Positions 2,929 to 62,892 are shown, counted from the stretch's first letter. The stretch is 64,000 nt of DNA from an uncultured Chitinophagaceae bacterium (GCA_963716885.1 CAVQUL010000008.1:36551-100550); one strand, 5' to 3'. The notes: a model not told the origin generated them from the letters alone. Numbers and translations are program-made.

Positions 2929-4351
2929 ATGCCTCACGAAGCCATTTCAGTTTTCGATATGTTTAAAATTGGTGTAGGACCCAGTAGTTCTCATACTTTA
3001 GGGCCTTGGCGTGCTGCAATGGAAGTTGTGAAAATCATCAAAGCAAAAACTAAGTTTGAAGAAGTTTCTACTATCAATGTTTTACTTTATGGGTCACTTG
3101 CTAAAACTGGTAGAGGTCATGGAACTGATGTTGCAGTTTTATTAGGGTTGTGTAATGAAGATCCTGTAACAATAGATGTAAATAGTATTGATGATAAAAT
3201 TAATTACATATATACGAATCATCAATTGAATTTGGGAAATGAAGTTTATGTGCCTTTTAACCCACATATTAATATCCAGTTTTTAAGCACAGAAACTTTA
3301 GAGTTTCATCCAAATGGGATGAGCTTCTTAATAGAACTCAGTAATGGCAATAGTTTCAGTGAAACATTTTTTTCAATTGGAGGAGGATTTGTAGTGAAAG
3401 AAGGTGAAGAAACTGTTTTTAGTACACAAGTAGAATTACCATTTCCTATTAACACTTCAAAAGATTTAGTGCATTGGTGTATGAAAACAGGAATGTCTAT
3501 CAGTGAAGTTGTGATGGAAAATGAAAATGCATGGAGAACTGAAAAAGAAACTATTGATGGTGTATTAAATATTTGGAAAACCATGCAGGAGTGCATTTAC
3601 AGAGGTTGTCATTCAAGAGGAATTTTACCAGGAGGATTAAATGTAAAACGTAGAGCTGCAGATTTGAATAAAAAATTATTAAATGGTAAAACCTATAACA
3701 ATTTTGAAGAATGGTTAGCTTGTATTAAAACTGGTGGTCATCAATTTAATTATATACTAGATTGGGTGAGTTGTTTTGCTTTGGCTGTGAATGAAGAGAA
3801 TGCCAATTTTGGTAGAGTAGTTACTGCACCAACCAATGGAGCTGCAGGAGTTATTCCAGCTGTATTAATGTATTATAAATTGTTTTGTGATGTAGAGGAT
3901 GAAATAATGATTGTTAAGTTCTTATTAATAGCATCAGAAGTTGGTAGTATTTTTAAAAAAGGAGCAACTATTTCTGCAGCAATGGGTGGTTGTCAAGCTG
4001 AAATTGGAGTAAGTCAGTGCAATGGCTGCAGCAGCATTAACTGAATGTTTAGGAGGCACACAAAAGCAAGCTTTAATGGCTGCAGAAATTGCTATGGAAC
4101 ATCATTTAGGATTAACCTGTGATCCAATAGCTGGGTTAGTTCAGATACCTTGTATTGAAAGAAATACTATGGGAGCAATAAAAGCTATAACTGCTTGTCA
4201 GCTTGCTTTACAAGGTACTCCAGATTTTGCAAAAGTAAGTTTAGATAAAGTAATTGAAACCATGTGGCAAACTGCTTTAGATATGAATACTAAATACAAA
4301 GAAACTGCAGATGGTGGTCTAGCTTTATCTGTTAATTTATCTGAATGTTAA
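2929..4351 (+). pseudogene. sdaA: L-serine ammonia-lyase (Fe-S type, fused alpha/beta); frame broken once
   Basis: [15 protein letters not shown] start. ORFs 2929-4044 and 4022-4351 are consecutive parts of one protein (...CQAEIGVS / AMAAAALTE...). Confidence 0.9.
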
Positions 4352-16582: not shown

Positions 16583-18071
16583 TTACATAAAAAAAATAGC
16601 TTTCAATTTGAAAGCTATTTTTTTATATGATACTATTTTTACATGGTTGCCAACTGAACTTTTTGAGTAAGTTCTTGTAACATTTTCTTTAAAAATGCTA
16701 TCGGTATCCATTAAATCTTTTACAGTTTGACAAGAGTGAATTACAGTTGTATGATCTCTTCCTCCAAAATGTTCACCAATTGTTTTTAAAGAATTTTTAG
16801 TAAATCCTTTTGCCAAAAACATAGTGATTTGTCTTGCTTGAACAATTTCTCTTTTACGTGTTTTGTGCAAAAGTTTTTCGTAAGGAACACTAAAAAATTC
16901 ACAAACAATTTTTTGAATTGAATCAATTGTAATTTCTTTACTACTAGTTCTTACAAAATTTCTTAATACTTTTTTAGTCAACTCAACATCAATTTCTTTT
17001 TTGTTGAGAGATGATTGTGCTAATAATGATATTAATGCTCCTTTTAATTCTCTAATGCTTGTGTTTATATTATAAGCAACATATTTTACCACTTCAGCAC
17101 TTAACTCTAAACCATCATCTTTCATCATTTTTTCTAAAATCTCAACGCGAGTTTCATAGTCTGGTAATTGCAAGTCTGTGCTTAATCCCCAACGAAATCT
17201 GCTTAATAATCTTTCTTGCATACCATCTAAATCTTTAGGTGGTTTATCAGATGTTAAAATTAATTGTTTACCACTTTGATGAAGGTGGTTGAAGATTGCA
17301 AAAAATGCATCTTGACTTTTTTCTGCTTTTGCAAAATATTGTACATCATCAATAATTAAAACATCTATCAATTGATAAAAATGTATGAAATCGTTGATAG
17401 CGTTGTTTCTACTATGATCTTGAAACTGATTGATGAATTTTTCACTACTTACATATAGAACTACTTTGTTAGAGTGAAGTCTTTTTACTTCATTACCTAT
17501 TGCTTGAACCAAGTGAGTTTTACCCATACCAGTACCACCATATAGAACTAATGGATTAAAAGAACTTGAACCTGGTTTTTCAGCAACAGTTTTTCCAGCT
17601 CTTCTTGCCACTCTATTACATTCACCTTCTACATAATTATCAAAAATATAATTTGATTTAAGTTGGGGATCAATTTGCATTTTTTTGATTCCCGGAATAA
17701 CAAAAGGATTTTTAACAGGACTGTCTATTACTAAAGGAAAAGACATTTCATTATTATGAAACAGTTTTTACTGAAGTTGCAGGAACATCAACACTTCCAC
17801 TTCTTCCATTTCCACTATCTACCATTATTCTATATTCCAATCTTGCATCTTTACCTAATTCTCTTTTTAAAGTTTTTGCAAGAAGAGTTACATAATGCTC
17901 TTCTAGGTATTCATAAAAAAATTGGCTAGGCACTTGAATCATTAAAACATTACCCTTTAACTCAACAGGAGTAATAGGTTCGAACCAAGTTTTAAAATGT
18001 TGCCATTCTACTATATCCTTAATTATGTTCAGACAATTGAGCCATATTAATTCTGCAGTTTTATTAGTCAT
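16583..18071 (-). pseudogene. dnaA: Chromosomal replication initiator DnaA; frame broken in the domain II linker and near the C-terminus
   Basis: The domain I ORF (17754-18071) and the AAA+/DNA-binding ORF (16583-17746) are in different frames. GGTGMGKTHL, IDDVQYF, DHTTVIHSCQ. A shift near 16665 gives ...ELTQKVQLATM with stop complement at 16639-16641. Confidence 0.9.
16588..16625. terminator. Bidirectional rho-independent terminator shared by the convergent DUF3276 gene and dnaA
   Basis: ATAGCTTTCAA (16596-16606) / TTGAAAGCTAT (16608-16618), flanked by an A-run on the left and a T-run on the right. Confidence 0.75.
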
Positions 18072-37019: not shown

Positions 37020-37376
37020 ATGGCTTATAATTTAAAATTGGCTCAACGTTTACGAGAATCTTTAATTGATTTAAAAAATATTGAAGAAAGAAATATGTTT
37101 GGAGGCATTTGTTTTATGCTGAATGATAAAATGTGTATTGGTATAAGTAATGATGACTTGATGTGCAGATTTAACCCAGAAATTACTGAAGAAGTTATGC
37201 ATAAAAAAGGAGCTAGGCCAATGGATTTTACAAATAGAGTAATGAAAGGATTTGTGTTTGTGGACGAATCTGGCTATCAGAAAAAAAATGATTTAGAATA
37301 TTGGATAAAAATTTCAGTAGAATATAATGCTATAGCAAAAAAATCTCCAAAAAAGAAATCAAAACATGCAAAGTGA
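37020..37376 (+). CDS. TfoX/Sxy N-terminal-domain protein
   Basis: LAQRLRESL...NMFGGICFMLNDKMCIGI pattern of TfoX_N. Confidence 0.6.
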   Translation: MAYNLKLAQRLRESLIDLKNIEERNMFGGICFMLNDKMCIGISNDDLMCRFNPEITEEVMHKKGARPMDFTNRVMKGFVFVDESGYQKKNDLEYWIKISVEYNAIAKKSPKKKSKHAK

Positions 37377-38317: not shown

Positions 38318-38336
38318 TTGATGTTTTTTTTGTTTC

Positions 38337-38426
38337 TACAAAGTTTCTCTTTCCTTCACAACGTCCTCTCAAAAGCAAGGTAAGGTAGCAAAAGGAACTT
38401 TGTTATGAAAGATATTTGTGAAAAAA
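38337..38426. repeat. Left-end repeat copy E1 (degenerate hairpin arm plus tail)
   Basis: TTCCTTCACAACGTCC (38351-38366) matches the arm of the right-end hairpins. Tail AGCAAAAGGAACTTTGTTATGAAAGATATTTGTGAAAAAA (38387-38426) is ~70% identical to 42133-42168. ACAAAGTTTC (38338-38347) can pair with GAACTTTGT (38395-38403). Confidence 0.6.
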
Positions 38427-38452
38427 TATTTTTAAAAAAATAGTAACAATTG

Positions 38453-38495
38453 AAATGTACGTAGTTTTTAAACAATACAAAATGTACGTAGTTTT
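38453..38495 (+). promoter_or_regulatory. Perfect 16-bp direct repeat AAATGTACGTAGTTTT x2 (palindromic TACGTA core) upstream of the island's first gene
   Basis: Copies at 38453-38468 and 38480-38495, start-to-start spacing 27 bp, ~115-155 bp upstream of ATG 38610/38622. Confidence 0.4.
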
Positions 38496-38609
38496 AAAAT
38501 AAGTACAAATACATAAATTTGTTATGAAAATCAAATATTTATTTTAAAAAATTCAAAATATAGCAAACCAAAAACATGCGTATATTTAAGAGTTGGTGGC
38601 AATTAAGTT

Positions 38610-40718
38610 ATGCTAAAAATTATGAAACTAAAATTCACTTTCCTTACTATCCTGCTGATACCAGCATTACTTTTCGGGCAACCTAAAACCAAAATGTATG
38701 GCGATGGAAATACCAGTATAAAAATTAACGATTCGGCCAATTACCTGAGTAATGCGGACAGACGCATTTGGTTAGAGAATAGTGCACTGGCATTTAGTGC
38801 AAATGAAGAAGAGTTATATTTTCGTCATCCAACCGATAAGTATTTTCAGGTTTGGAGCGTTGCCCGCAAACAAAAGCTTTCGGAAATTACTTTTAACGAT
38901 GCAGGCAATACAGCTAAAGGCAGGATGATCATTGCCGCATTCCCAAATACAATTTATCAGGAAGATGAATATGCCAATTCTAAAATATGGCTTTCACCAG
39001 ATTTGTATGTAACCTTTAACAACCGAAATAATTTCACTATTTCAGAAGGGCAAAATCAATCAGAAAAATCTTTTACGCTTAAATTACGAAATAGCATTGA
39101 TGATAATTTTTCACCAGATTATAAGGACTATTACAAAAAGGGGAATCTCATAAATACAAGTTACCAATTGTATTACCACAAAATTTCTAATAAATTATTT
39201 ATCATTACCTATGCAGATCAGGTTGGTAAAATGAAACCAGTTTGGGGAAAAGATAAAGTCCCCTTTTTGATTCCTTATAATGGAATTTTTAGTTTTGATT
39301 TAGCAACCAATACACTTACGGTGCTAGCAGAAAATCCTCATTGTGCAAGCGGAAAGTATAATGGTCAAAAAGATAAATGGTATTTTTTTAACGACAAATT
39401 GATTAGAAGATATGTCAAAGAAGAAAATAACCTTTTTGCCAAATTCCATTTATCAACCTTAAATCAAAAAGATTTAATAGACGTCACTAAAGATAGAAAC
39501 CATTACAATAAAGAACCAGCTGGTTTTAAAAATCCAATAGCCGGCATCGACCTTCAGGAAAATTTATACTTTGTAAATCCTGCCAATAATCACATTGAAA
39601 TTTATTATTTTGATAAATCAAACATTGGGAAAGGAAATTTAGTAACCATTTTGCATTCCTCAAACAAACTAAATAATATAGTTTATAACATATACGAAAA
39701 TGATGATGTAGAACAAGTGTTTGCCAAGAATATCATAACAATTTCTCCATCTGGAAAAAATGTTGCTTACCTATGTTTAAATAACCGCACTGCGGTAGGA
39801 AATTACGCATCAATTATGATGTATAATGTGGACGAAAGTGACAAGGTTTATACACTAAATGACCAAACAAAATTTCAACCTTACATTTCCCATGGTTTTG
39901 TTACAAATAAAGAAAGTGAAGCACTTGCATTGGTTTGGCAAAAAAAAGTTGATGAAAAGGCAAGCAACAAGAAAACTCAAGATGAGGTTGCAAAACAAGA
40001 AAGGAAAAACCGATACACACCTCAGATAGTTGAATTAAAATCCCAGTATTTGGAATTGGTAAAAGAACGTGATGCAACTTTTAAAGAAGATATAGAACTT
40101 TATAAACTTGGAGATTTTAAAGCAGTTTTGGTTCGTAATATTTGGCTTGCAAAAGAAATATATAAGCCTTATTCTACTTCTCCATCATCACATTATTTTT
40201 ATGCTAAAGAAGAGGTTGCATTCAGGTATTCAAGCAATGGTGTTTATGCTATTATCAAAGAGATCTTAACATTTCCTGTATCCAAAAAAACAGACAAATA
40301 CCTTTTACTAACCGGCGACCCTGGATTTAATGATTGGTATGTTGAAGGGGTAACCAAAGGGGTTCAATATATAACTTCTAATTATGATGTTATACCAATT
40401 GAGGACTGGAAGGGAAATGAGTGTAGAACCAATACCGACCCTGTTGGTTTAAGTCAGGTGAAGGGGCAAGAGATTATCCAACAAGGGAAACTTTTTGAAA
40501 ATTTTAGTAAAATATATAGAGCTTGTTTATTGAAGGCTAAGTTTAAATTAACATTACTTGCAAACAATACTTTTATACTAACCGCAAATACAGCTACTGG
40601 TGCTAGATTTATACTCGAAATACCCGAAACCAGTCAGCAAATGAAACTTGATGGGAAAATGAGTGATTTAAGAAAGGAGATACAAAAATTAGAAGGTTTT
40701 ATTGAAAATGGAAATTGA
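38610..40718 (+). CDS. Secreted protein of unknown function (702 aa; possible beta-propeller-like repeats and coiled-coil segments)
   Basis: Long uninterrupted ORF. Signal peptide MKLKFTFLTILLIPALLFGQ (alternative start 38622). G+C-richer codon usage than neighbours. No motif I can assign. Confidence 0.7.
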   Translation: MLKIMKLKFTFLTILLIPALLFGQPKTKMYGDGNTSIKINDSANYLSNADRRIWLENSALAFSANEEELYFRHPTDKYFQVWSVARKQKLSEITFNDAGNTAKGRMIIAAFPNTIYQEDEYANSKIWLSPDLYVTFNNRNNFTISEGQNQSEKSFTLKLRNSIDDNFSPDYKDYYKKGNLINTSYQLYYHKISNKLFIITYADQVGKMKPVWGKDKVPFLIPYNGIFSFDLATNTLTVLAENPHCASGKYNGQKDKWYFFNDKLIRRYVKEENNLFAKFHLSTLNQKDLIDVTKDRNHYNKEPAGFKNPIAGIDLQENLYFVNPANNHIEIYYFDKSNIGKGNLVTILHSSNKLNNIVYNIYENDDVEQVFAKNIITISPSGKNVAYLCLNNRTAVGNYASIMMYNVDESDKVYTLNDQTKFQPYISHGFVTNKESEALALVWQKKVDEKASNKKTQDEVAKQERKNRYTPQIVELKSQYLELVKERDATFKEDIELYKLGDFKAVLVRNIWLAKEIYKPYSTSPSSHYFYAKEEVAFRYSSNGVYAIIKEILTFPVSKKTDKYLLLTGDPGFNDWYVEGVTKGVQYITSNYDVIPIEDWKGNECRTNTDPVGLSQVKGQEIIQQGKLFENFSKIYRACLLKAKFKLTLLANNTFILTANTATGARFILEIPETSQQMKLDGKMSDLRKEIQKLEGFIENGN

Positions 40719-40770
40719 TATATTAAGGTAAGGATAAGGATATGGTTGACGAGATAACTGCCACCAACAT

Positions 40771-40946
40771 GGGGTTTTATGCAAGTTGGGCTTGACAAAT
40801 TTAGCTTCAGCAAATTGCAAAGCCGAGCTTTAGTTCGGGCTGGACAAACATCGCTGGGCTTTAGTTCTTAACTTCATCAATATATTTTCAATCAGCAGCG
40901 GTTGTCGGGCGGACGGAATACTATTTCCCAACCTGCATAAAGCCCT
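40771..40946 (+). ncRNA. Candidate structured RNA (or MITE-like element) closed by a 20-bp helix
   Basis: 40771-40790 pairs with 40927-40946 (17 Watson-Crick, 2 G-U, 1 mismatch on the + strand). Inner helix 40843-40856 / 40896-40906. Tandem half-repeats at 40788-40836 and 40837-40867. ~45% G+C. No ORF of 60 aa or more. Confidence 0.3.
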
Positions 40947-40995
40947 GCCCGTTATGCCGCAATGCTATGACGACACTAAAACTAACTTCAAATAA

Positions 40996-41876
40996 ATGGC
41001 AAAGCCGTTAGAAAATATAACGAAAGAGTATCCAAAACGTCGACCATTAAGTCAGTTTCGTTTTGAGAAATCAATTTCCTTTAACTGCTTTCGGTGCGGA
41101 CAATCAAAAACTTCCAACTAATTACAACATGTAATAATGACTGGAACAAAAGATTATGTAACGGTTGTTATGGACGTTTGCTATCAATTTATGACATCAA
41201 AGCTGGACAGACTGGAATAGATGAAAAAGTTGAGCAACTTCTAGAAGTTCTAATTAAGTTGGTTGACGATAGCAAACTAAGAGAGCAATCCACAAAAATT
41301 AATCTGCAATCTAACCGAGCTAAATTTCTAACTCCGACAACTATGAGATTTTTTGCAACGTCCGAGTGTGTTGCAGAGACATTAACAAAAGAACCCAACC
41401 TTGACTGGTCGCCTGCAATAATAGGGTTATGCAAAGCATTTGAATTGGAACTAGTTGAAAGACTTATTAATCCACTAAAAGATTATTGTCAAGAAGTTAG
41501 TTTTTCTGAACAAGATTTAAAAGACAAGGACTTTGGCAAAATTGCCAACTATTGTTCTGGAAAGCCAATGAAATCGCCTGAACTTGGTGTTATAAATCAC
41601 TTTATATCGACAGCAGTTAATAGCAAAGAACGTCTTGAGACCAGCAATTTTTTAAAGTTAGGATTTAAAGGTTTTCTAAGTAAACTGCCAAATCATAATT
41701 GGATAATTGACAAAAGCGGATTGAGTAGTGGAATTCAAGCCCTAACGACTAATTATAGAAATAAAGCGGCACATACTGATGAACTTGAAGAACAGGATTA
41801 TCAAAAATGTAAAGACCTCGTTTTCGGTGACAGCGGAATTATTTGGGATTTGATTTTAAGTTCTGAAAGAAAATAA
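40996..41876 (+). pseudogene. Zinc-ribbon + HEPN-like (R-x4-H) protein; frame broken once at an A5 run
   Basis: ATG 40996 opens 41 codons (...SFNCFRCGQSKTSN*). ORF 41094-41876 continues in another frame. One extra A in 41106-41110 joins them (CFRCGQSKNFQLITTCNNDWNKRLCNGC). RNKAAH lies at 41757-41774. Confidence 0.6.
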
Positions 41877-41914
41877 ACTGATGAGAACAGAAGCACATAC
41901 CGATAACTTCTTCC

Positions 41915-41963
41915 CCACAACGTCTCCTTAAAAGGCTTGAGTGTTAGCTAAGGGACGTTGTGG
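41915..41963. repeat. Bulged palindromic element H2
   Basis: CCACAACGTC-T-CCTT (41915-41929) pairs with AAGGGACGTTGTGG (41950-41963): 14 bp, one bulged T, 20-nt loop. Confidence 0.7.
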
Positions 41964-42054
41964 TAATGGTTAGTATAGTAGCTTAAAAATTTATATTTGC
42001 TTAATGCGAGTAAGCCGAAATGTAAAAAAATGATGTTTGCAAAACAATAAAAAA

Positions 42055-42168
42055 CACAACGTCCCTTGGCTTACACACAAAATGCTTGGAAAGGAGACGT
42101 TGTGGCGAAGGAATCTAAAAGGTATATGAAATAGCAAAGGGACTTTCATGAGAAAAATATGTGAAAAC
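42055..42168. repeat. Bulged palindromic element H3 (inverted relative to H2) plus tail homologous to E1
   Basis: CACAACGTCCCTT (42055-42067) pairs with AAGG-A-GACGTTGTG (42091-42104): 13 bp with a bulged A, the mirror of H2. Tail AGCAAAGGGACTTTCATGAGAAAAATATGTGAAAAC is at 42133-42168. Confidence 0.7.
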
Positions 42169-42263
42169 TTATATTGAAAATCAAAGTTTTCAACAAACCA
42201 CCTGCTAATCCTCTAACAGAATTAATAAAATTATCTTTATTTGCCGAGTTTAATTTATTAGTG

Positions 42264-43140: not shown

Positions 43141-43953
43141 ATGATTCATATTGTATTTGAAAAAGCGAGTGTAGGTGTATTGCAAAAAACTATTGAACTT
43201 GATGAAAGTTTGGCAGGAGAAATTATTGAAATAAAAGACGATTATGCAGTTGGTCCAATTGAAAATATTTTTGAAGTTGAAGGCTATCAACAAAGACGAG
43301 ATTGGTGGAAAGAAATTATTAAAAATTCTACTTATGAAAACCAATTAGATATTGTTGATGACAAACTTACCATTCATCAACTCATTAAAAATCTTACAGA
43401 AAATGAAGAAGAAACTGCATGGATTTGGGTTGCACAAAATACACATGATGTTTGTGGATATTATTGGTTAATGAGTCAGCTTAAAGATTTTCAAGGTAGA
43501 GTAGAAGTATTGTTTTTAAACAATCTTCCTTTTATCAACGAAAAAGGTCTAATATTCTATCCTGAATACTTACATGAAATTCAACCAAAAGAATTTATAA
43601 AAGCAAAAAAATTAGCTAGAACCATAACCCCAAGTGAATTTGAAATAGACCCTGACGAATGGAAAAAGTTATGTGCAGAAAATAATATATTAAGGATTTT
43701 AGAAGGAGGTAAAAAAGTGGTTGGTAAACCTAGTAATTATTTTGACAAACAAATTCTAGAAATGATTTCTTCAGAATTTCAAAAGCTCTCTAAAATTATT
43801 CAACAGATTTTAAGTAAGTCGAAACTCAATATTAGTGATACTTTCATTGTTTTTAGAATTAAAGAAATGATTAATGCTGAACAATTGGTAATGCTTGGAG
43901 ATTGGGAAAAAGGTTGGAAAGAAATTGAAATTAAATTATCAGTAACTATTTAA
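43141..43953 (+). CDS. DUF1835/DUF3658-like protein
   Basis: MIHIVFEKASVGVLQ... start and length are typical of DUF1835-family proteins. Function unknown. Confidence 0.5.
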   Translation: MIHIVFEKASVGVLQKTIELDESLAGEIIEIKDDYAVGPIENIFEVEGYQQRRDWWKEIIKNSTYENQLDIVDDKLTIHQLIKNLTENEEETAWIWVAQNTHDVCGYYWLMSQLKDFQGRVEVLFLNNLPFINEKGLIFYPEYLHEIQPKEFIKAKKLARTITPSEFEIDPDEWKKLCAENNILRILEGGKKVVGKPSNYFDKQILEMISSEFQKLSKIIQQILSKSKLNISDTFIVFRIKEMINAEQLVMLGDWEKGWKEIEIKLSVTI

Positions 43954-43979: not shown

Positions 43980-46495
43980 ATGGAAGATTATACAGACGAT
44001 AATACCTCAAATCATATTGGAGTTAAAGACCAATACAAAACTTGGTTTTTAGATTATGCATCATATGTAATTCTTGAACGTGCTGTACCAGCTTTGGAAG
44101 ATGGTTTAAAACCTGTGCAAAGAAGAATTTTGCATGCCATGAAAGAAATGGATGATGGAAGATATAATAAAGTGGCAAATATTATTGGTCAAATCAATGC
44201 AATACCATCCTCATGGTGATGCTTCTATTGGAGATGCTTTGGTGAATATGGGACAAAAAGATTTACTAATAGATACACAAGGAAATTGGGGAGATGTTAG
44301 AACTGGTGATGATGCAGCTGCTCCAAGATATATTGAAGCAAGACTAAGCAAATTTGCTATACGATGTTGCTTTTAACAACAAAACTACTCATTGGCAATT
44401 GAGTTATGATGGTAGAAAAAAAGAACCGATTACATTGCCAATGAAATTCCCAATGCTTTTAGCTCAAGGTGCTGAAGGCATTGCTGTTGGTCTTTCTACT
44501 AAAATTTTGCCACACAACTTTTGTGAACTTATTGATGCTTCAATAAAATATTTAAAAGGCAAAAAGTTTGAATTATTTCCAGATTTTCAAACTGGAGGTA
44601 TGATTGATGTTACCAACTACAATGATGGACATAGAGGTGGCAAAGTAAAAGTTCGTTGTTTAATAGAAGAGTTTGATAAAAAGAGTTTGGTAATTCGTGA
44701 TGTGCCATTTGGAGTTACTGTAACTCAACTTTGTGAAAGCATTACAAAAGCTAATGATTCAGGAAAAATCAAGATTAAAAAAGTAACGGAATTTACAGGT
44801 AAAAATGTTGAAGTTTTAATTGAATTAGCAGCAGGAATTTCTCCTGATATTACAATTGATGCATTATATGCATTTACTGATTGTGAGGTCAGTATTTCTC
44901 CAAATGCTTGTGTCATTGAATCACAAAAACCAAATTTTGCAAACGTTTCACATTTATTAAAATCATCTGTAGATAATTCAAAAGAATTATTAAAACGTGA
45001 GTTAGAAATTAAGTTAAGTGAACTTGAAGAAAAATGGCATTATACATCTTTAGAAAAAATATTCTTCGAAGAAAAAATATATAAAGAACTCGAAAAGAAG
45101 CATGAAACTTGGGAAAAAGTAATTCAAGCAATCGACAAAGGATTTGAGCCATTCAAAAAACAATTAAAAAGAGCAGTTACAAGAGAAGATATTTTAAAAC
45201 TTACAGAAAAACCTGTTCGAAGAATTTATAAACTAGATATTGATGAACTCAATGAACAAATTAAAAATATTGAGACTGACATCAAACAAGTAAAATACGA
45301 TTTAGATCATTTAGTTGAATATACTATTAGCTATTATGAAACTTTATTGAAGAAGTATGGCAAAGGAAAAGAAAGAAAAACTGAAATAAAACTATTCGAT
45401 ACTATTAAAATTCAACAAGTTGCCATTGCTAATACAAAGTTGTATGTGAATAGAGAAGAGGGTTTTGTTGGAACATCATTAAAGAAAGATGAATTTTTAT
45501 TTGATTGTAGTGATATAGATGATATTGTCGTTTTTACAAAACGAGGGATTATGAAAGTTGTAAGGGTGGGCGATAAATCCTTTATTGGTAAAGACATTAT
45601 TCATGCTGCAATCTTTGATAAGAATGATGATAGAACAACATATAACATGATTTATGTTGATGGAAAATCAGCAGTGAGTTATGCAAAAAGATTTAATGTA
45701 ACCAGCATTACGAGAGAAAAGGAATATGATTTGACCAAGGGCTCAGATAAAAGTAAAGTTCATTATTTCACAGAGAATCCTAATGGTGAAACAGAAGTGT
45801 TGAAAATTATTTTAAGTCCGAATTGTTCTGCACGAAATAAAGAATTAGAATATTATTTCGAAGAATTAGAAATTAAAGGAAGAAGTTCCCAAGGAAATAT
45901 TGTAACGAAATATCCTATTAAAACTGTTAAGTATAAAGAAGCAGGAAGAAGTACTTTAGCCAGTAGAAAAATTTGGCTTGACGAACAATTTGGACGTTTA
46001 AATGTTGATGAGAAAGGTAGATTACTTGGTTCTTTTGAAGGAGATGATAAATTACTAGTTGTTTATAAAGATGGTAATTATGAAATTACAGATTTAGAAT
46101 TAACTCAAAGATTTGATGCAGATGAAATCAAATTAATTGAAAGATATGATGCAGAAAAAATTGTAACTGTAGTTTATCATGATGTTGATAAATCTCAGTT
46201 CACAGTTAAACGATTTAAAATTGAAACATCAACTCTTAAAACAAAATATTCTTGTATTAAGGAAGGAAATGGGAATTATATTGTTGCTGTTTCAACACTT
46301 GCAGAACCAATTTTGGCTGTACAACAAGGTAAAGGTGAACAAGTACGAAATGGCAAATTAAAGATTGCAAAAATTGTTGATGTAATGGGCTGGAAAGCTA
46401 TTGGAGCAAAGCTTTTAGACTATAACAAAACTGTGTTAATGCATTGGGAAGAAAAACCAAAAGATGAAAATGCACCACCTGAACTTTTTGAATAG
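43980..46495 (+). pseudogene. parC: DNA topoisomerase IV subunit A (type IIA topoisomerase A subunit); frame broken twice
   Basis: LKPVQRRILHAM and [10 protein letters not shown]. Three consecutive ORFs. One A fewer in the A3 run 44191-44193 restores [11 protein letters not shown]. Second break near 44360. Confidence 0.85.
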
Positions 46496-55634: not shown

Positions 55635-58130
55635 ATGACGAATAAGTTAAAATCAAAGCCACAGCTTAATCCTGATAAATTGAATGAGGATAAAGAACCT
55701 GTAGTTACAATCTCTGAGGTTGTCAAGGACGAACGAACTAGTAAAATCTTTGGAACATTTTCAATTGGCTTTGCTATCTTTTTATTTATATCAATTGTTT
55801 CTTATTTATTTAGTTGGCAAGAAGATCAAGACACAGTTTTTAATGCTGGGTTAAAAATATTTTCATCCGATGCTCCAATAGTTCATAATTTTTTTGGAGC
55901 ATTAGGGGCATTTACTGCACATAATTTGGTTTTTAATGGATTTGGTGTTGCCTCAATTGTAATTTCATCTTTCTTTTTTGTTTTTGGTGTAAACATGTTT
56001 TTTTCAAAACCTGTTTTTTCTATTACAAAGAATGTAAAATATGTTTTGATTTCATTGGTAATTCTAAGTACAAGTTTGGCTTTTATAACAACTCAAAGTC
56101 AATTAAGTTGGGGTGGTGCAGTAGGAAATTATTTAAATAAATGGTTGAATGCTACAATTGGTAGATTAGGTACAGGCTTAGCATTACTAATGGGTTATTT
56201 TATTTATTTCATTTGGAAATTTAATCCAAAATTTAGTTTGCCAGAAAGAAGCAAAATTGTGCAAGATGAAGTTGCTGATGCCTCAAATTCTGAAAGTAAA
56301 TTATTTATAGATGATGATTTAGTAGATGATAAAATTGAACTCAAGTTGAATGAAAGTGATGGATTATCTGGAAATAAATTAAAGTCTGATGCAGGAATTG
56401 TATCTGTGATTTTACCAGATGAAGATCAAATCAGTTTTAATATTGATGAAAAAGAAGAGGAAGAAATAGATCCAGAACATGCTTCAAGATTCGAAGAAAT
56501 TGATCAACTCCCAAAACAAAAATTTACTGCTAAACCAGCTAGTGATTTGCCTTTGGAAATAAAAGATGTTGAAGAAGAAGTTGCAGAAAATCCAAAGCCT
56601 AAATCTAAAACTGTTGAAATGGCTAACTATGAGCCAACCTTAGATTTAAGCAATTATAAATATCCTTCAATTGATTTATTAGAAACTCATGGAAGCGAAA
56701 AAATTGTTCATGATCCTACAGAATTAGAAACCAATAAAAATCAAATCATAGCTACTTTAAAAAACTATGATATCGATATTCAAAGAATTGCAGCTACAGT
56801 TGGACCAACAGTAACATTATATGAAATTGTTCCTGCACCTGGTGTAAGAATTAGTAGAATCAAAAACTTAGAAGATGATATTGCTTTAAGTCTAGCTGCA
56901 CTTGGCATTAGAATTATTGCACCAATTCCTGGTAAAGGAACAATTGGTATTGAAGTGCCTAATATTAAGAAGACTGTTGTCAGTATGAAATCACTCATCA
57001 GCAGTGAAAAATTTCAAAAAAATAATTTTTCTCTACCAATAGCTATTGGTAAAAAAATTGATAATGAAAACTTCATTGTGGATTTAACAACTATGCCTCA
57101 CTTATTAATGGCTGGTGCAACTGGACAAGGAAAATCTGTTGGTATTAATACATTATTGGTTTCATTACTCTATCAAAAAGCATCCCTCTCAACTTAAAGT
57201 TTGTTTTAGTAGATCCTAAAAAAGTGGAGTTAAGTTTATATAAGGTTATCGAAAAACATTTCTTGGCAAAACTTCCTGGAGAAGATGATCAGTATTATAA
57301 CCGATACAAAAAAAGTTGTTCATACTTTAAATGCTTTATGTATTGAAATGGATAATCGTTACGATCTTTTAAAAGAAGCTGGTTGTAGAAATATTAAAGA
57401 GTACAATGAAAAATTTGTTGCAACGAAAACTTAAATCCACAAAAAGGACATCAATTTTTACCATTTATTGTTTTAGTTGTTGATGAATTTGCAGATTTAA
57501 TTATGACTGCTGGCAAAGAAATTGAAATGCCAATTGCTCGTTTAGCTCAGTTAGCACGAGCTGTTGGTATTCATTTAATAATTGCTACACAAAGACCTTC
57601 TGTTAATATTATTACAGGTACAATTAAAGCAAATTTCCCTGCACGTATTGCTTTTAAAGTTTCGAGTCAAAATTGATAGTAGAACTATTTTAGATGTTGG
57701 TGGAGCAGAACAATTGATTGGTAAAGGTGATATGCTAATTAGTTATAATGGAGAAATTACTCGTTTGCAATGTGCTTTTGTTGATACGCCTGAGGTAGAT
57801 AGAATTTGTGAAGAAATAGGAAAACAACAAGGATATCCAGAACCATTTTATTTGCCAGAATATGTTGATGAAAAAGAAATGGAATCGAAAGATTTTGACG
57901 TAAATGATAGAGATCCATTGTTTGCAGATGCTGCTAGATTGATAGTGCAAAACCAAGTAGGAAGTACATCCTTAATTCAAAGAAGAATGAAGCTTGGATA
58001 CAATAGAGCAGGAAGATTAATGGATCAATTGGAACGAGAAGGAATTGTAGGTCCAAATTTAGGTAGCAAAGCCAGAGATGTACGTTTTAAAACAGAAGCA
58101 GAGCTAGATGAATATCTTTCTAATTCTTAA
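55635..58130 (+). pseudogene. ftsK: DNA translocase FtsK/SpoIIIE; frame broken at least 4 times between ~57185 and ~57670
   Basis: N-terminal TM region and acidic linker, Walker A GATGQGKSV. The inter-ORF stretch reads KFVLVDPKKVEL..., [18 protein letters not shown] in shifting frames. C-terminal gamma domain STSLIQRRMKLGYNRAGRLMDQLE. Confidence 0.85.
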
Positions 58131-61679: not shown

Positions 61680-62892
61680 ATGAATTTACACGAATATCAA
61701 GCTAAAGAATTATTAAAGAATTATAAAGTTCCAGTTCAAGAAGGTATTGCAGTTGATCATGTTTCTGCAGCAGAAGATGCCTATAAGCAAATTTCTTCTC
61801 AAACGAATAATAAATTTGCTGTTGTTAAAGCACAAATTCATGCAGGTGGTAGAGGTAAAGGAAAAGTTAATGAAACAGGCATGAATGGTGTTAAAGTGGG
61901 TAAGTCTGTTGAAGATATTAAAAGCTTTTGCTGAAGGTATTTTAGGTGGAACATTGGTAACTATTCAAACTGGTCCAGCAGGGAAAAAAGTGTCTAAAAT
62001 TTTGGTTGCACAAGATGTTTATTATGATGGTCCTAATAAGCAAAAAGAATTTTATTTATCTATTCTTTTAGATAGAACTGCAGGACAAAATGTAATCATG
62101 TACAGCACTGAAGGAGGAATGGATATTGAAGAAGTTGCACATAATACACCTGATAAAATATTTAAAGAATTGGTTCATCCAAGTGGAGGTTTACAAGCTT
62201 TTCAGGCAAGAAAGATTGCATTCAATTTGGGTCTTTCTGGCGAAGCCATGAAAAACTGTATCAAGTTTGTTACAAATTTATATAAGGCTTATGTTGATTT
62301 AGATTGTGGAATGATTGAGATTAATCCACTTTTTAAAACTAGTGATGAAAAAATTATTGCTGTGGATTGTAAGATGAATATTGATGATAATGCATTAACT
62401 CGTCATCCAATAATTTCAGCATTAAGAGATACAAGCGAAGAAGATCCAACAGAAGTTGAAGCAGGCGAATACAATTTGAACTTTGTAAAGCTTGATGGTA
62501 ATGTTGGCTGTATGGTTAATGGTGCAGGTTTAGCTATGGCAACCATGGATATGATTAAATTAGCTGGTGGAGAGCCTGCAAACTTCTTAGATGTAGGTGG
62601 TTCTGCAAATGCTCAAACAGTTGAAGCTGGTTTTAGAATCATTATGAAAGATCCTAATGTAAAAGCAATTTTAATTAATATTTTTGGTGGAATTGTTCGT
62701 TGTGATAGAGTTGCTGCTGGTGTTATTGAAGCTTTCAATAAATTAGGTAATATTAATATTCCAATCATTGTTCGTTTACAAGGAACCAATGCTGTTGAAG
62801 CTAAAAAATTAATTGATGAAAGTGGATTAAAAGTACAAAGTGCAATTTTGCTTTCTGAAGCTGCAGCATTAGTAAAGCAGGCTGTTGCTTAA
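61680..62892 (+). pseudogene. sucC: Succinate--CoA ligase (ADP-forming) beta subunit; frame broken once
   Basis: MNLHEYQAKELL start. One A fewer in the A4 run 61920-61923 restores ...EDIKAFAEGILGG... Confidence 0.9.

Follow-up and report, generated by a model that had tools for sequence, protein, structure and literature searches.

The window analysed here is a 64,000-nt stretch of DNA from an uncultured Chitinophagaceae bacterium (GCA_963716885.1 CAVQUL010000008.1:36551-100550), and positions are counted from its first letter. Its subject is a block that separates the ssb gene from a methyltransferase (MT) gene and carries two genes in the same orientation. The data presented below make it probable that the block is foreign DNA consisting of two independent integron-type cassettes, inserted head to tail between ssb and the MT gene in the manner of attC-site clusters that lack an integron integrase (CALIN) or of single attC sites without one (SALIN). 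Each cassette comprises an open reading frame (ORF) followed by an imperfectly palindromic recombination site, bounded by ...AAC (R'' box) and G|TT... (R' box). The main elements are as follows:

38318-42173, genes on the plus strand: the block, between the ssb stop and the MT gene.
38318-38592, plus strand: the leader, AT-rich (24% G+C), from the ssb stop to cassette 1.
38593-40951, plus strand: cassette 1, 2.36 kb, with 5' boundary G|TTGGTGGCA (the G being 38592) and ending with the G of R' (40951).
38610-40718, plus strand: gene 1, encoding a secreted protein of 702 aa with a signal peptide.
40760-40958, plus strand: attC-type site of cassette 1, 199 nt, formerly viewed as a spacer, placed by a match to the covariance model R1 (see below) and by its anatomy.
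40952-41907, plus strand: cassette 2, conserved extent, from the 5' boundary G|TTATGCC to the R'' box.
40996-41876, plus strand: gene 2, encoding a zinc-ribbon and HEPN-like protein of 293 aa after repair of a 1-nt deletion at about 41116-41118.
41897-41907, plus strand: R'' box of cassette 2, ATACCGATAAC, complementary to the 5' end found in relatives, TTATCGGTAT.

The block stands out by its composition. Its G+C content is 33.4%, a value reached by just 0.7% of equal-length windows, as compared to 29.4% for the window as a whole, and the G+C content at third codon positions (GC3) of gene 1 (0.266) and gene 2 (0.253) ranks as the top two among 50 ORFs (mean 0.176, standard deviation 0.034). 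The segment between 40741 and 40980 has the highest value of all 240-nt windows, 45.4% (109/240), and the stretch from 43141 to 43200, which had been chosen earlier as a control, has 28.3%. Both figures agree with the hand counts given in the original prediction. The compositional shift is genuine though modest.

Comparison with relatives defined the insertion site. The DUF1835 protein encoded beyond the MT gene is 80-81% identical to its counterparts in three metagenome-assembled genomes, which places the host in the Chitinophagaceae. Two relatives (L004 and L051, with ssb identities of 86% and 72%, respectively) keep the order peptidase M23-DUF4292-dut-osmC-ssb-MT-DUF1835-parC. In both, ssb is separated from the MT gene by only about 155-170 nt, both block genes are missing and the leader has no counterpart; this is the empty site, ssb followed directly by the MT gene, that the original prediction had proposed to look for. 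DNA similarity with relatives restarts in the MT upstream region, at position 42156 for L002 and L003 or 42182 for L004 and L051. With an empty site in relatives and outlying composition, the suspected horizontal origin is borne out: the block is a genuine, horizontally acquired insertion. In L002 and L003, the closest relatives by DUF1835 identity, the gene directly 5' of the MT gene is not ssb but a gene for a membrane protein of 181 aa (L002:837-1382; L003:1-362). Since these genomes carry another gene upstream of MT, the ssb-MT junction is a variable spot, or hotspot.

The variability of the locus in L002 and L003, together with there being just two informative empty-site relatives, could be taken to mean that the block is ancestral and was deleted in the relatives. 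We consider this scarcely credible. L004 and L051 lie at different distances from the host, as judged from their ssb identities, so that two independent and precise deletions would be required; moreover, the GC3 values of both genes are outlying, and both cassettes are found in unrelated genomes and contexts at 80-93% nucleotide identity.

The G+C-rich "spacer" between the two genes is the attC-type site belonging to cassette 1. The architecture of such sites is most readily seen in L001, where every ORF in a low-G+C patch has an imperfect palindrome behind it, about 125 nt long, that starts with ...YTAAC and ends with ...AAACC G|TTAGC. The same ORF-then-palindrome arrangement is found in L082, L084, L087, L088-L090 and L097. 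Nine sites from L001, L082, L084 and L087 made up the structure test set. They have in common an R box plus stems of 9 bp and 6 bp, with 85% of cells paired, versus 64% after shuffling and 28-43% with slid partners. Their covariation score is 0.558 versus 0.19 in shuffled alignments (0/500 shuffles reach it), and compensatory changes affect 13 of 15 pairs in the two L-box stems, or 14 of 21 over three helices when the R box is included. The structure figures hold in a set of 19 distinct sites, in which the inner R-box pairs are C-G (18/18), A-U (15/18) and A-U (15/18), and the AAC/GTT pairs are nearly invariant.

A covariance model, R1, was built from the nine sites only, no sequence from the window, L088-L090 or L097 being used. 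When both strands of the 64-kb window were searched, the top match was the plus-strand segment 40760-40958 (18.3 bits, E ~0.008, full model), with borders that agree with those drawn by hand. In L087, L088, L089, L090 and L097, R1 also recovered sites outside its training set, which are without exception on the strand of the genes, and it gave no match in 80 control Chitinophagaceae loci (1.32 Mb). In the window the site is laid out as R'' GCCACCAAC (40760-68), L'' GGGGTTTTATGCAAGTTGGG, a variable stretch of about 117-130 nt in the centre, L' CCCAACCTGCATAAAGCCC and R' G|TTATGC (40951-57); homologous sites are present in L088, L089, L090 and L097. Sites fall into two length ranges, 119-137 nt in L001, L082, L084 and L087, and 199-215 nt, with a long variable centre, in the window, L088-L090 and L097. 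Throughout, arrays are strand-consistent, the sites following co-oriented ORFs. A structured RNA in the spacer was also considered; this reading was dropped since the minimum free energy is no better than that of shuffled sequences (z = -0.8 and -0.7 on the two strands). The supposed repeat "echo" at 40725-40742 simply belongs to the 3' tail of cassette 1.

The ends of cassette 1 coincide with sequence breaks in other genomes. Gene 1 and its site occur at 80-88% nucleotide identity in L088, L089, L090 and L097, amid neighbours that vary, being either insertion sequence (IS) transposases (adjoining in L088 and L090) or an MNT-like cassette. DNA homology starts at 38592 (L088, L089) or 38607 (L097) and ends at 40957 (L090); break points thus lie at G|TT on the left (38592 or 38607) as well as on the right (40951-40957). 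The inner 5' boundary used in L097, G|TTATGC (the G being 38607), is an alternative start for cassette 1. For a circular cassette that opens at G|TT, the 5' end is expected to be complementary to its own R''. This is what we found: TTGGTGGCA, at the start of cassette 1, is the reverse complement of TGCCACCAA in its R''. The site opens with TGCCACCAAC (40759-40768), which pairs with the start G|TTGGTGGCA (38592|38593), and the L097-type start G|TTATGC (38607|38608) matches the adjacent GAGATAAC. With its 2.36 kb, cassette 1 falls at the upper end of the size range known for cassettes (PMC4889954). In L097, the next cassette after the gene 1 homolog (L097:8119-8409) encodes a 96-aa NTP_transf_2/Polbeta (MNT-like) protein, a typical toxin-antitoxin cargo of cassette arrays.

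Cassette 2 has equally sharp ends. Between 40961 and 41907 it is 92.6% identical to L001:9967-10913, and a 97% identical copy in L087 stops at the same base, 41907. The gene 2 cassette is also found in L082, L084 and L087, where it starts at the R' of the preceding site. Its start in relatives reads G|TTATCGGTAATGC, also written G|TTATCGGTAAT. The pairing between this end and R'' is TTATCGG / CCGATAA, and both sides change together in L084 (TTAGCG / CGCTAA); cassettes in L001 likewise have a 5' end complementary to their own R''. From locus to locus the gene 2 ORF is 92-97% identical, and the DNA beyond GATAAC differs. The attC body that follows it in L001, L082 and L087 scores 110-128 bits with R1. 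A reading of gene 2 as a transposon bounded by terminal inverted repeats was rejected, because the 10-nt "terminal inverted repeat" around the gene (GTTATCGGTA/TACCGATAAC) is the R'/R'' complementarity of an opened cassette, i.e., the split pair of a linearised molecule.

The array in L001 (8900-13900) contains at least five cassettes and has 34% G+C within a 7.76-Mb genome of about 42% G+C. It sits between a gene of the beta-lactamase family and a DUF1223 gene; no integrase is present within 10 kb, and the small ORFs in its low-G+C patch have no Pfam family. In L082 an extra ORF of 195 aa, also without Pfam family (L082:5903-6490), is located between gene 2 and the conserved tail with R'', within the same cassette.

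The original prediction had favoured a single accessory module, possibly an undescribed two-gene system, while allowing that the block might be two cassettes. The latter guess proved right. Gene 1 is found at 5 other loci and gene 2 at 14, and the check for co-occurrence showed that the two are together in the window only; hence the block is not a two-gene system. It could still be argued that both genes and the structured spacer form one unit, for instance a module for defence or a toxin module that includes a regulatory RNA, given that the genes are adjacent on the same strand with no promoter-like motif between them, neither protein belongs to a Pfam family, and gene 2 is toxin- or defence-like. 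However, besides the lack of co-occurrence, the spacer travels with gene 1 and not with gene 2, the gene 1 product is a secreted propeller and that of gene 2 is cytoplasmic, and gene 2 has different neighbours and partners elsewhere. One-system readings are largely refuted by these data, and we regard them as very improbable.

The open reading frame of gene 1 matches the 702-aa signal-peptide gene described previously. In its AlphaFold2 (AF2) model (mean predicted local distance difference test score, pLDDT, 75.8), a beta-propeller at the N-terminus is followed by a long helix spanning residues 436-489, a C-terminal domain rich in beta structure and, last, a terminal helix. A fold search with this model returned generic propeller matches only, and no meaningful match was obtained in Pfam, NCBIfam, PADLOC or PHROGs. 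Seventeen homologs were found. Gene 1 would seem to be separate cargo, unrelated to gene 2.

Gene 2 belongs to a large family, with 371 close relatives and 1,159 clusters (50% identity) at E <= 0.001, and it has members in Bacteroidota, Ignavibacteria, Spirochaetales and Rhodopseudomonas and on plasmids of Bradyrhizobium and Streptomyces. The family alignment has an invariant CxxC...CxxC, and residues R255, N256, A258 and H260 (RNxAAH motif) are invariant in 44 sequences. In the AF2 model (pLDDT 89.8), an N-terminal beta zinc ribbon precedes an all-alpha remainder, in which helix 243-259 has the Rx4H motif at its end and a loop comes next. HEPN domains are recognised by Rx4-6H at the end of helix 3 in an alpha-helical bundle (PMC3710099), and the motif of gene 2 occupies such a position. 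Direct comparisons gave little: Pfam HEPN matches are weak and isolated (HEPN_MAE_28990, 0.031; Csm6_HEPN, 0.081; Swt1, 0.088), Foldseek matches to Csm6 and to a HEPN toxin are likewise weak (E 0.6-3.5), and a profile search of the PDB yielded no HEPN match. With model and structure matches this weak, membership of gene 2 in the HEPN superfamily is likely rather than proven. No meaningful family match was found in Pfam, NCBIfam, PADLOC or PHROGs; PADLOC 2.0 gave no family for either protein at E <= 1, the annotated phage collection no match to gene 2, the plasmid collection two distant matches only, and a fold search of the viral structures in BFVD nothing. One UniRef record labels a homolog "RiboL-PSP-HEPN domain-containing".

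The zinc ribbon (residues 7-61, encoded by 41014-41180) is homologous to mt-LAF7 of Trypanosoma brucei (6yxx_EG, 7aoi_XA; hidden Markov model E = 2e-7, Foldseek probability 1.0). In pre-ribosomes, mt-LAF7, a mitoribosomal assembly factor, binds rRNA H41/42 in its unfolded state, at the base of the L7/L12 stalk. This resemblance is a lead, and no more, for a possible targeting of RNA or the ribosome. In four relatives (P0207, P0210, P0211 and P0191) the C-terminal HEPN-like domain is fused to Sigma70_r4 (sigma-70 region 4), to zf-dskA_traR (DksA/TraR zinc fingers) or to an IF2_N-like N-terminus, which suggests a swappable targeting module.

Outside cassettes, homologs of gene 2 are encountered beside an HpaII restriction-modification (R-M) gene in an integrase-bearing island, in a GmrSD/ResIII/methylase/WapI island, and at the end of a prophage-like element. 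In the prophage-like loci a 237-aa ORF without Pfam family lies directly upstream as a partner (L092:205-918). HEPN-type genes have precedent in integron cassettes (PMC3710099; bioRxiv 10.1101/2024.07.02.601686), Esos and Taranis being HEPN-like integron defence cassettes (bioRxiv 10.1101/2024.07.02.601686). Given these defence and prophage contexts and the published cassettes, the predicted function of gene 2 is most likely that of an RNase toxin or abortive-infection effector. It resembles HEPN RNase toxins and abortive-infection proteins (Anantharaman et al. 2013, PMC3710099) in having R-N-x-A-A-H (Rx4H) at a helix end in an all-alpha domain, a module that varies at the N-terminus in relatives (zinc fingers, helix-turn-helix), and a distribution over integron cassettes, prophage-like elements and R-M or defence islands. 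It differs from them in having no significant match to a Pfam HEPN family, a PADLOC model or a solved HEPN structure, in the mt-LAF7-related zinc ribbon, and in the absence of an adjacent MNT antitoxin in the window; its activity is a predicted one.

The edges of the block contain further repeats and signals:

about 38345-38410: diverged copy of palindromic unit A, in the leader at the left block edge.
38386-38437 and 42132-42180, plus strand: the two copies of an imperfect direct repeat of about 50 nt (flank repeat).
38453-38502: 27-nt tandem repeat AAATGTACGTAGTTTT, two copies, in the leader, containing a TACGTA palindrome.
38514: Bacteroidetes -7-like element TAAATTTG, in the leader, 77 nt before cassette 1.
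41915-41963 and 42054-42105, within 41908-42110: palindromic units A and B, about 50 nt each.

Five copies of the motif CACAACGTCYC are present in the window, all of them at block edges (38357, 41916, 41952-, 42055 and 42094-), against an expectation of 0.23. Units A and B have arms CCACAACGTCYCC / GGRGACGTTGTGG with a 92-nt AT-rich centre between them, a 200-nt hairpin being an alternative fold, and they occupy the position expected for the attC body of cassette 2. The flank repeat has an alignment score of 36, versus 21.8 +/- 2.8 in shuffled sequences (0/500 shuffles reach it). The palindrome motif has no copy in the 96 related loci searched (~1.4 Mb), and a scan of viral contigs with the CACAACGTC palindrome pair gave no match. 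The window has no tRNA. An Rfam gathering search of its whole length gave no family, and an E-value search of the block brought up nothing but a match of the long hairpin to a miRNA precursor, which is spurious. That hairpin was also considered as a miniature inverted-repeat transposable element (MITE) inserted into the cassette 2 attC, a candidate rejected on finding no L001-type attC remnant on its 3' side. Palindromes do mark cassette ends, as had been supposed; the bracketing CACAACGTC palindromes, on the other hand, are an element different from the attC-type site. Together with the flank repeat, units A and B may be a scar left by the insertion, sites of a second class, or the product of a local duplication.

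These features bring up the alternative that the palindromes are repetitive extragenic palindromic (REP)-like or MITE-like repeats, or terminators, and that the genes arrived by another route, be it homologous recombination, the remnant of a transposon or integrative and conjugative element, or a Campbell-type insertion through the flanking 50-nt repeat. As in REP elements, bacterial interspersed mosaic elements (BIME) or MITEs, the palindromes are short, imperfect, G+C-richer and intergenic, lying at gene 3' ends, and the CACAACGTC units A and B are clustered with alternating arms. The existence of the flanking direct repeat, the failure of the attC-type model to detect the CACAACGTC palindromes, the lack of an integrase nearby, the IS elements adjoining gene 1 in L088 and L090 and the unremarkable folding energy of the spacer would all fit. 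Unlike REPs or MITEs, however, the palindromes are not dispersed, all five copies residing at a single locus with none in 1.4 Mb of related loci. Nor are the attC-type sites genome-wide repeats, as R1 finds none in the 1.32 Mb of control loci or elsewhere in the window (scope: the window and ~1.4 Mb of related loci). The alternative, moreover, leaves aside homology breaks at G|TT in several independent contexts, the covarying complementarity between 5' end and R'', and strand-consistent arrays behind co-oriented ORFs. On balance we judge it unlikely.

An integrase was sought in several ways. Pfam scans of 27 window ORFs (~250-520 aa) identified no tyrosine recombinase, and neither did tblastn in the window, L001, L082-91 or L097. 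No integrase figures among the annotated genes adjoining cassette arrays in the fetched contigs. The only hits of the tblastn and Pfam searches were Xer-like genes in unrelated control loci. The window contains no complete integron, for which IntI, a tyrosine recombinase with the patch-III insertion, would be expected together with attI and Pc next to an array, and the earlier observation that the block has no integrase and the window no tRNA stands. With no integrase nearby, the element is of the CALIN/SALIN type (as defined by Cury et al. 2016, PMC4889954, and Loot et al., bioRxiv 10.1101/2022.09.11.507474), not a complete integron. CALINs of two cassettes and single cassettes outside integrons are common and can arise by insertion at genomic sites (bioRxiv 10.1101/2022.09.11.507474).

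Several observations weigh against the assignment to integron-type cassettes. Neither the window nor any of the cassette-bearing loci fetched yielded an intI gene or pseudogene. An attC site is usually 57-141 nt long; the site in the window, with 199 nt, exceeds this range. Stems contain mismatches of the 1x1 kind, A.C when read on the top strand and equivalent to G.T on the bottom one, with no obvious extrahelical bases, and with DNA parameters the bottom strand is the more stable one in only 10 of 15 sites. The label attC-type itself relies on our own model R1 and on site anatomy. Cassette 2 keeps only R'', the attC body present in L001, L082 and L087 being replaced by unrelated palindromes; these palindromes, units A and B, are not detected by R1, and a flank repeat of ~50 nt around the block is not something that insertion by IntI is expected to make. 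As to the cargo, the HEPN assignment of the gene 2 product comes from the motif and its location in the model, and is likely.

Set against these points are the features that the block shares with CALIN and SALIN elements: an ORF with a downstream imperfect palindrome, AAC...GTT boxes and the boundary G|TT; a 5' end complementary to its own R'', with site structure kept while sequence drifts; co-oriented arrays whose cargo has no assigned function or is of the toxin or defence kind; and a location of one or two cassettes among core genes with no intI nearby. It departs from them in its Chitinophagaceae host, in a window site of ~200 nt with a large variable centre, in the lack of clear extrahelical bases and of a cognate IntI, and in the replacement of the cassette 2 site after R'' by other palindromes and the presence of the 50-nt flank repeat.

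If the block indeed consists of integron-type cassettes, they would have been inserted by an IntI-type tyrosine recombinase acting on a folded single-stranded site, with crossover at G|TT, the integrase having been supplied from elsewhere or since lost. The cassettes bring no recognisable promoter with them and would be read from the AT-rich leader, presumably from the -7-like TAAATTTG at 38514; the AAATGTACGTAGTTTT repeat and TAAATTTG may be operator and promoter driving the promoterless cassettes. In gene 2, R255-N-x-A-A-H260 would be the catalytic motif, with the zinc ribbon targeting RNA, possibly ribosomal RNA.

A more far-reaching proposal has two parts, and to hold both together is speculative. 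According to the first, Chitinophagaceae and related Bacteroidota would have an integron-like lineage of cassette arrays of their own, with unusually long attC-type sites of ~200 nt and a recombinase yet to be named, in which ORFs might become re-paired with new site bodies through exchange at R''. According to the second, gene 2 would stand for a widespread single-gene defence or toxin family (~1,160 clusters) in which an mt-LAF7-like zinc ribbon delivers a HEPN RNase to the ribosome.

The mechanism, integron-type cassettes without an integrase, is already known. What is new here is the host lineage, the long variant of the site, the unexplained palindromes with the flank repeat, and an uncharacterised zinc-ribbon/HEPN cargo family. 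An anonymous "island" is thereby given a defined mechanism, cassette capture, and its odd spacer is seen to be a recombination site and neither a regulatory region nor an RNA gene. In complete Bacteroidetes genomes integrons are rare, according to the IntegronFinder 2.0 survey (PMC9024848). The block is further evidence for a circulation of integron-type cassettes among Chitinophagaceae and other Bacteroidota, a phylum for which complete-genome surveys list very few integrons. It also draws attention to a large zinc-ribbon/HEPN family without a Pfam model that moves among cassettes, prophage-like elements and R-M or defence islands across phyla, and that is a sensible candidate for anti-phage or toxin testing.

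As assembled, gene 2 is split into an ORF of 41 aa and one of 260 aa beginning with GTG at 41094, and the public record of the source genome contains only the 260-aa remnant (P0016, 100% identical). The repaired protein of 293 aa has full-length homologs at 96% identity. The earlier description of a zinc-ribbon/HEPN-like protein was correct in kind and not in its start, which is ATG at 40996 rather than GTG at 41094, the 1-nt deletion interrupting the frame. Two +1 indels, as compared with L004, split the parC gene (43980-46495) so that it reads as three ORFs, and Pfam domain matches are partial in ftsK (55635-57197), dnaA (16583-17746) and the segments 2929-4044 and 61885-62892. The parC indels and truncated core genes indicate either indel errors of the assembly or genome decay. 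Since parC, an essential gene, is broken in the same way, the gene 2 frameshift may be an assembly error, and frameshifts in this assembly, parC included, should not be taken for biology.

A further difference in gene content lies just upstream of the block. A gene for a TfoX_N-domain protein (37020-37376), located between dut and osmC, is missing at the same junction in L004 and L051; judged by this comparison, it appears to be a second small lineage-specific insertion.

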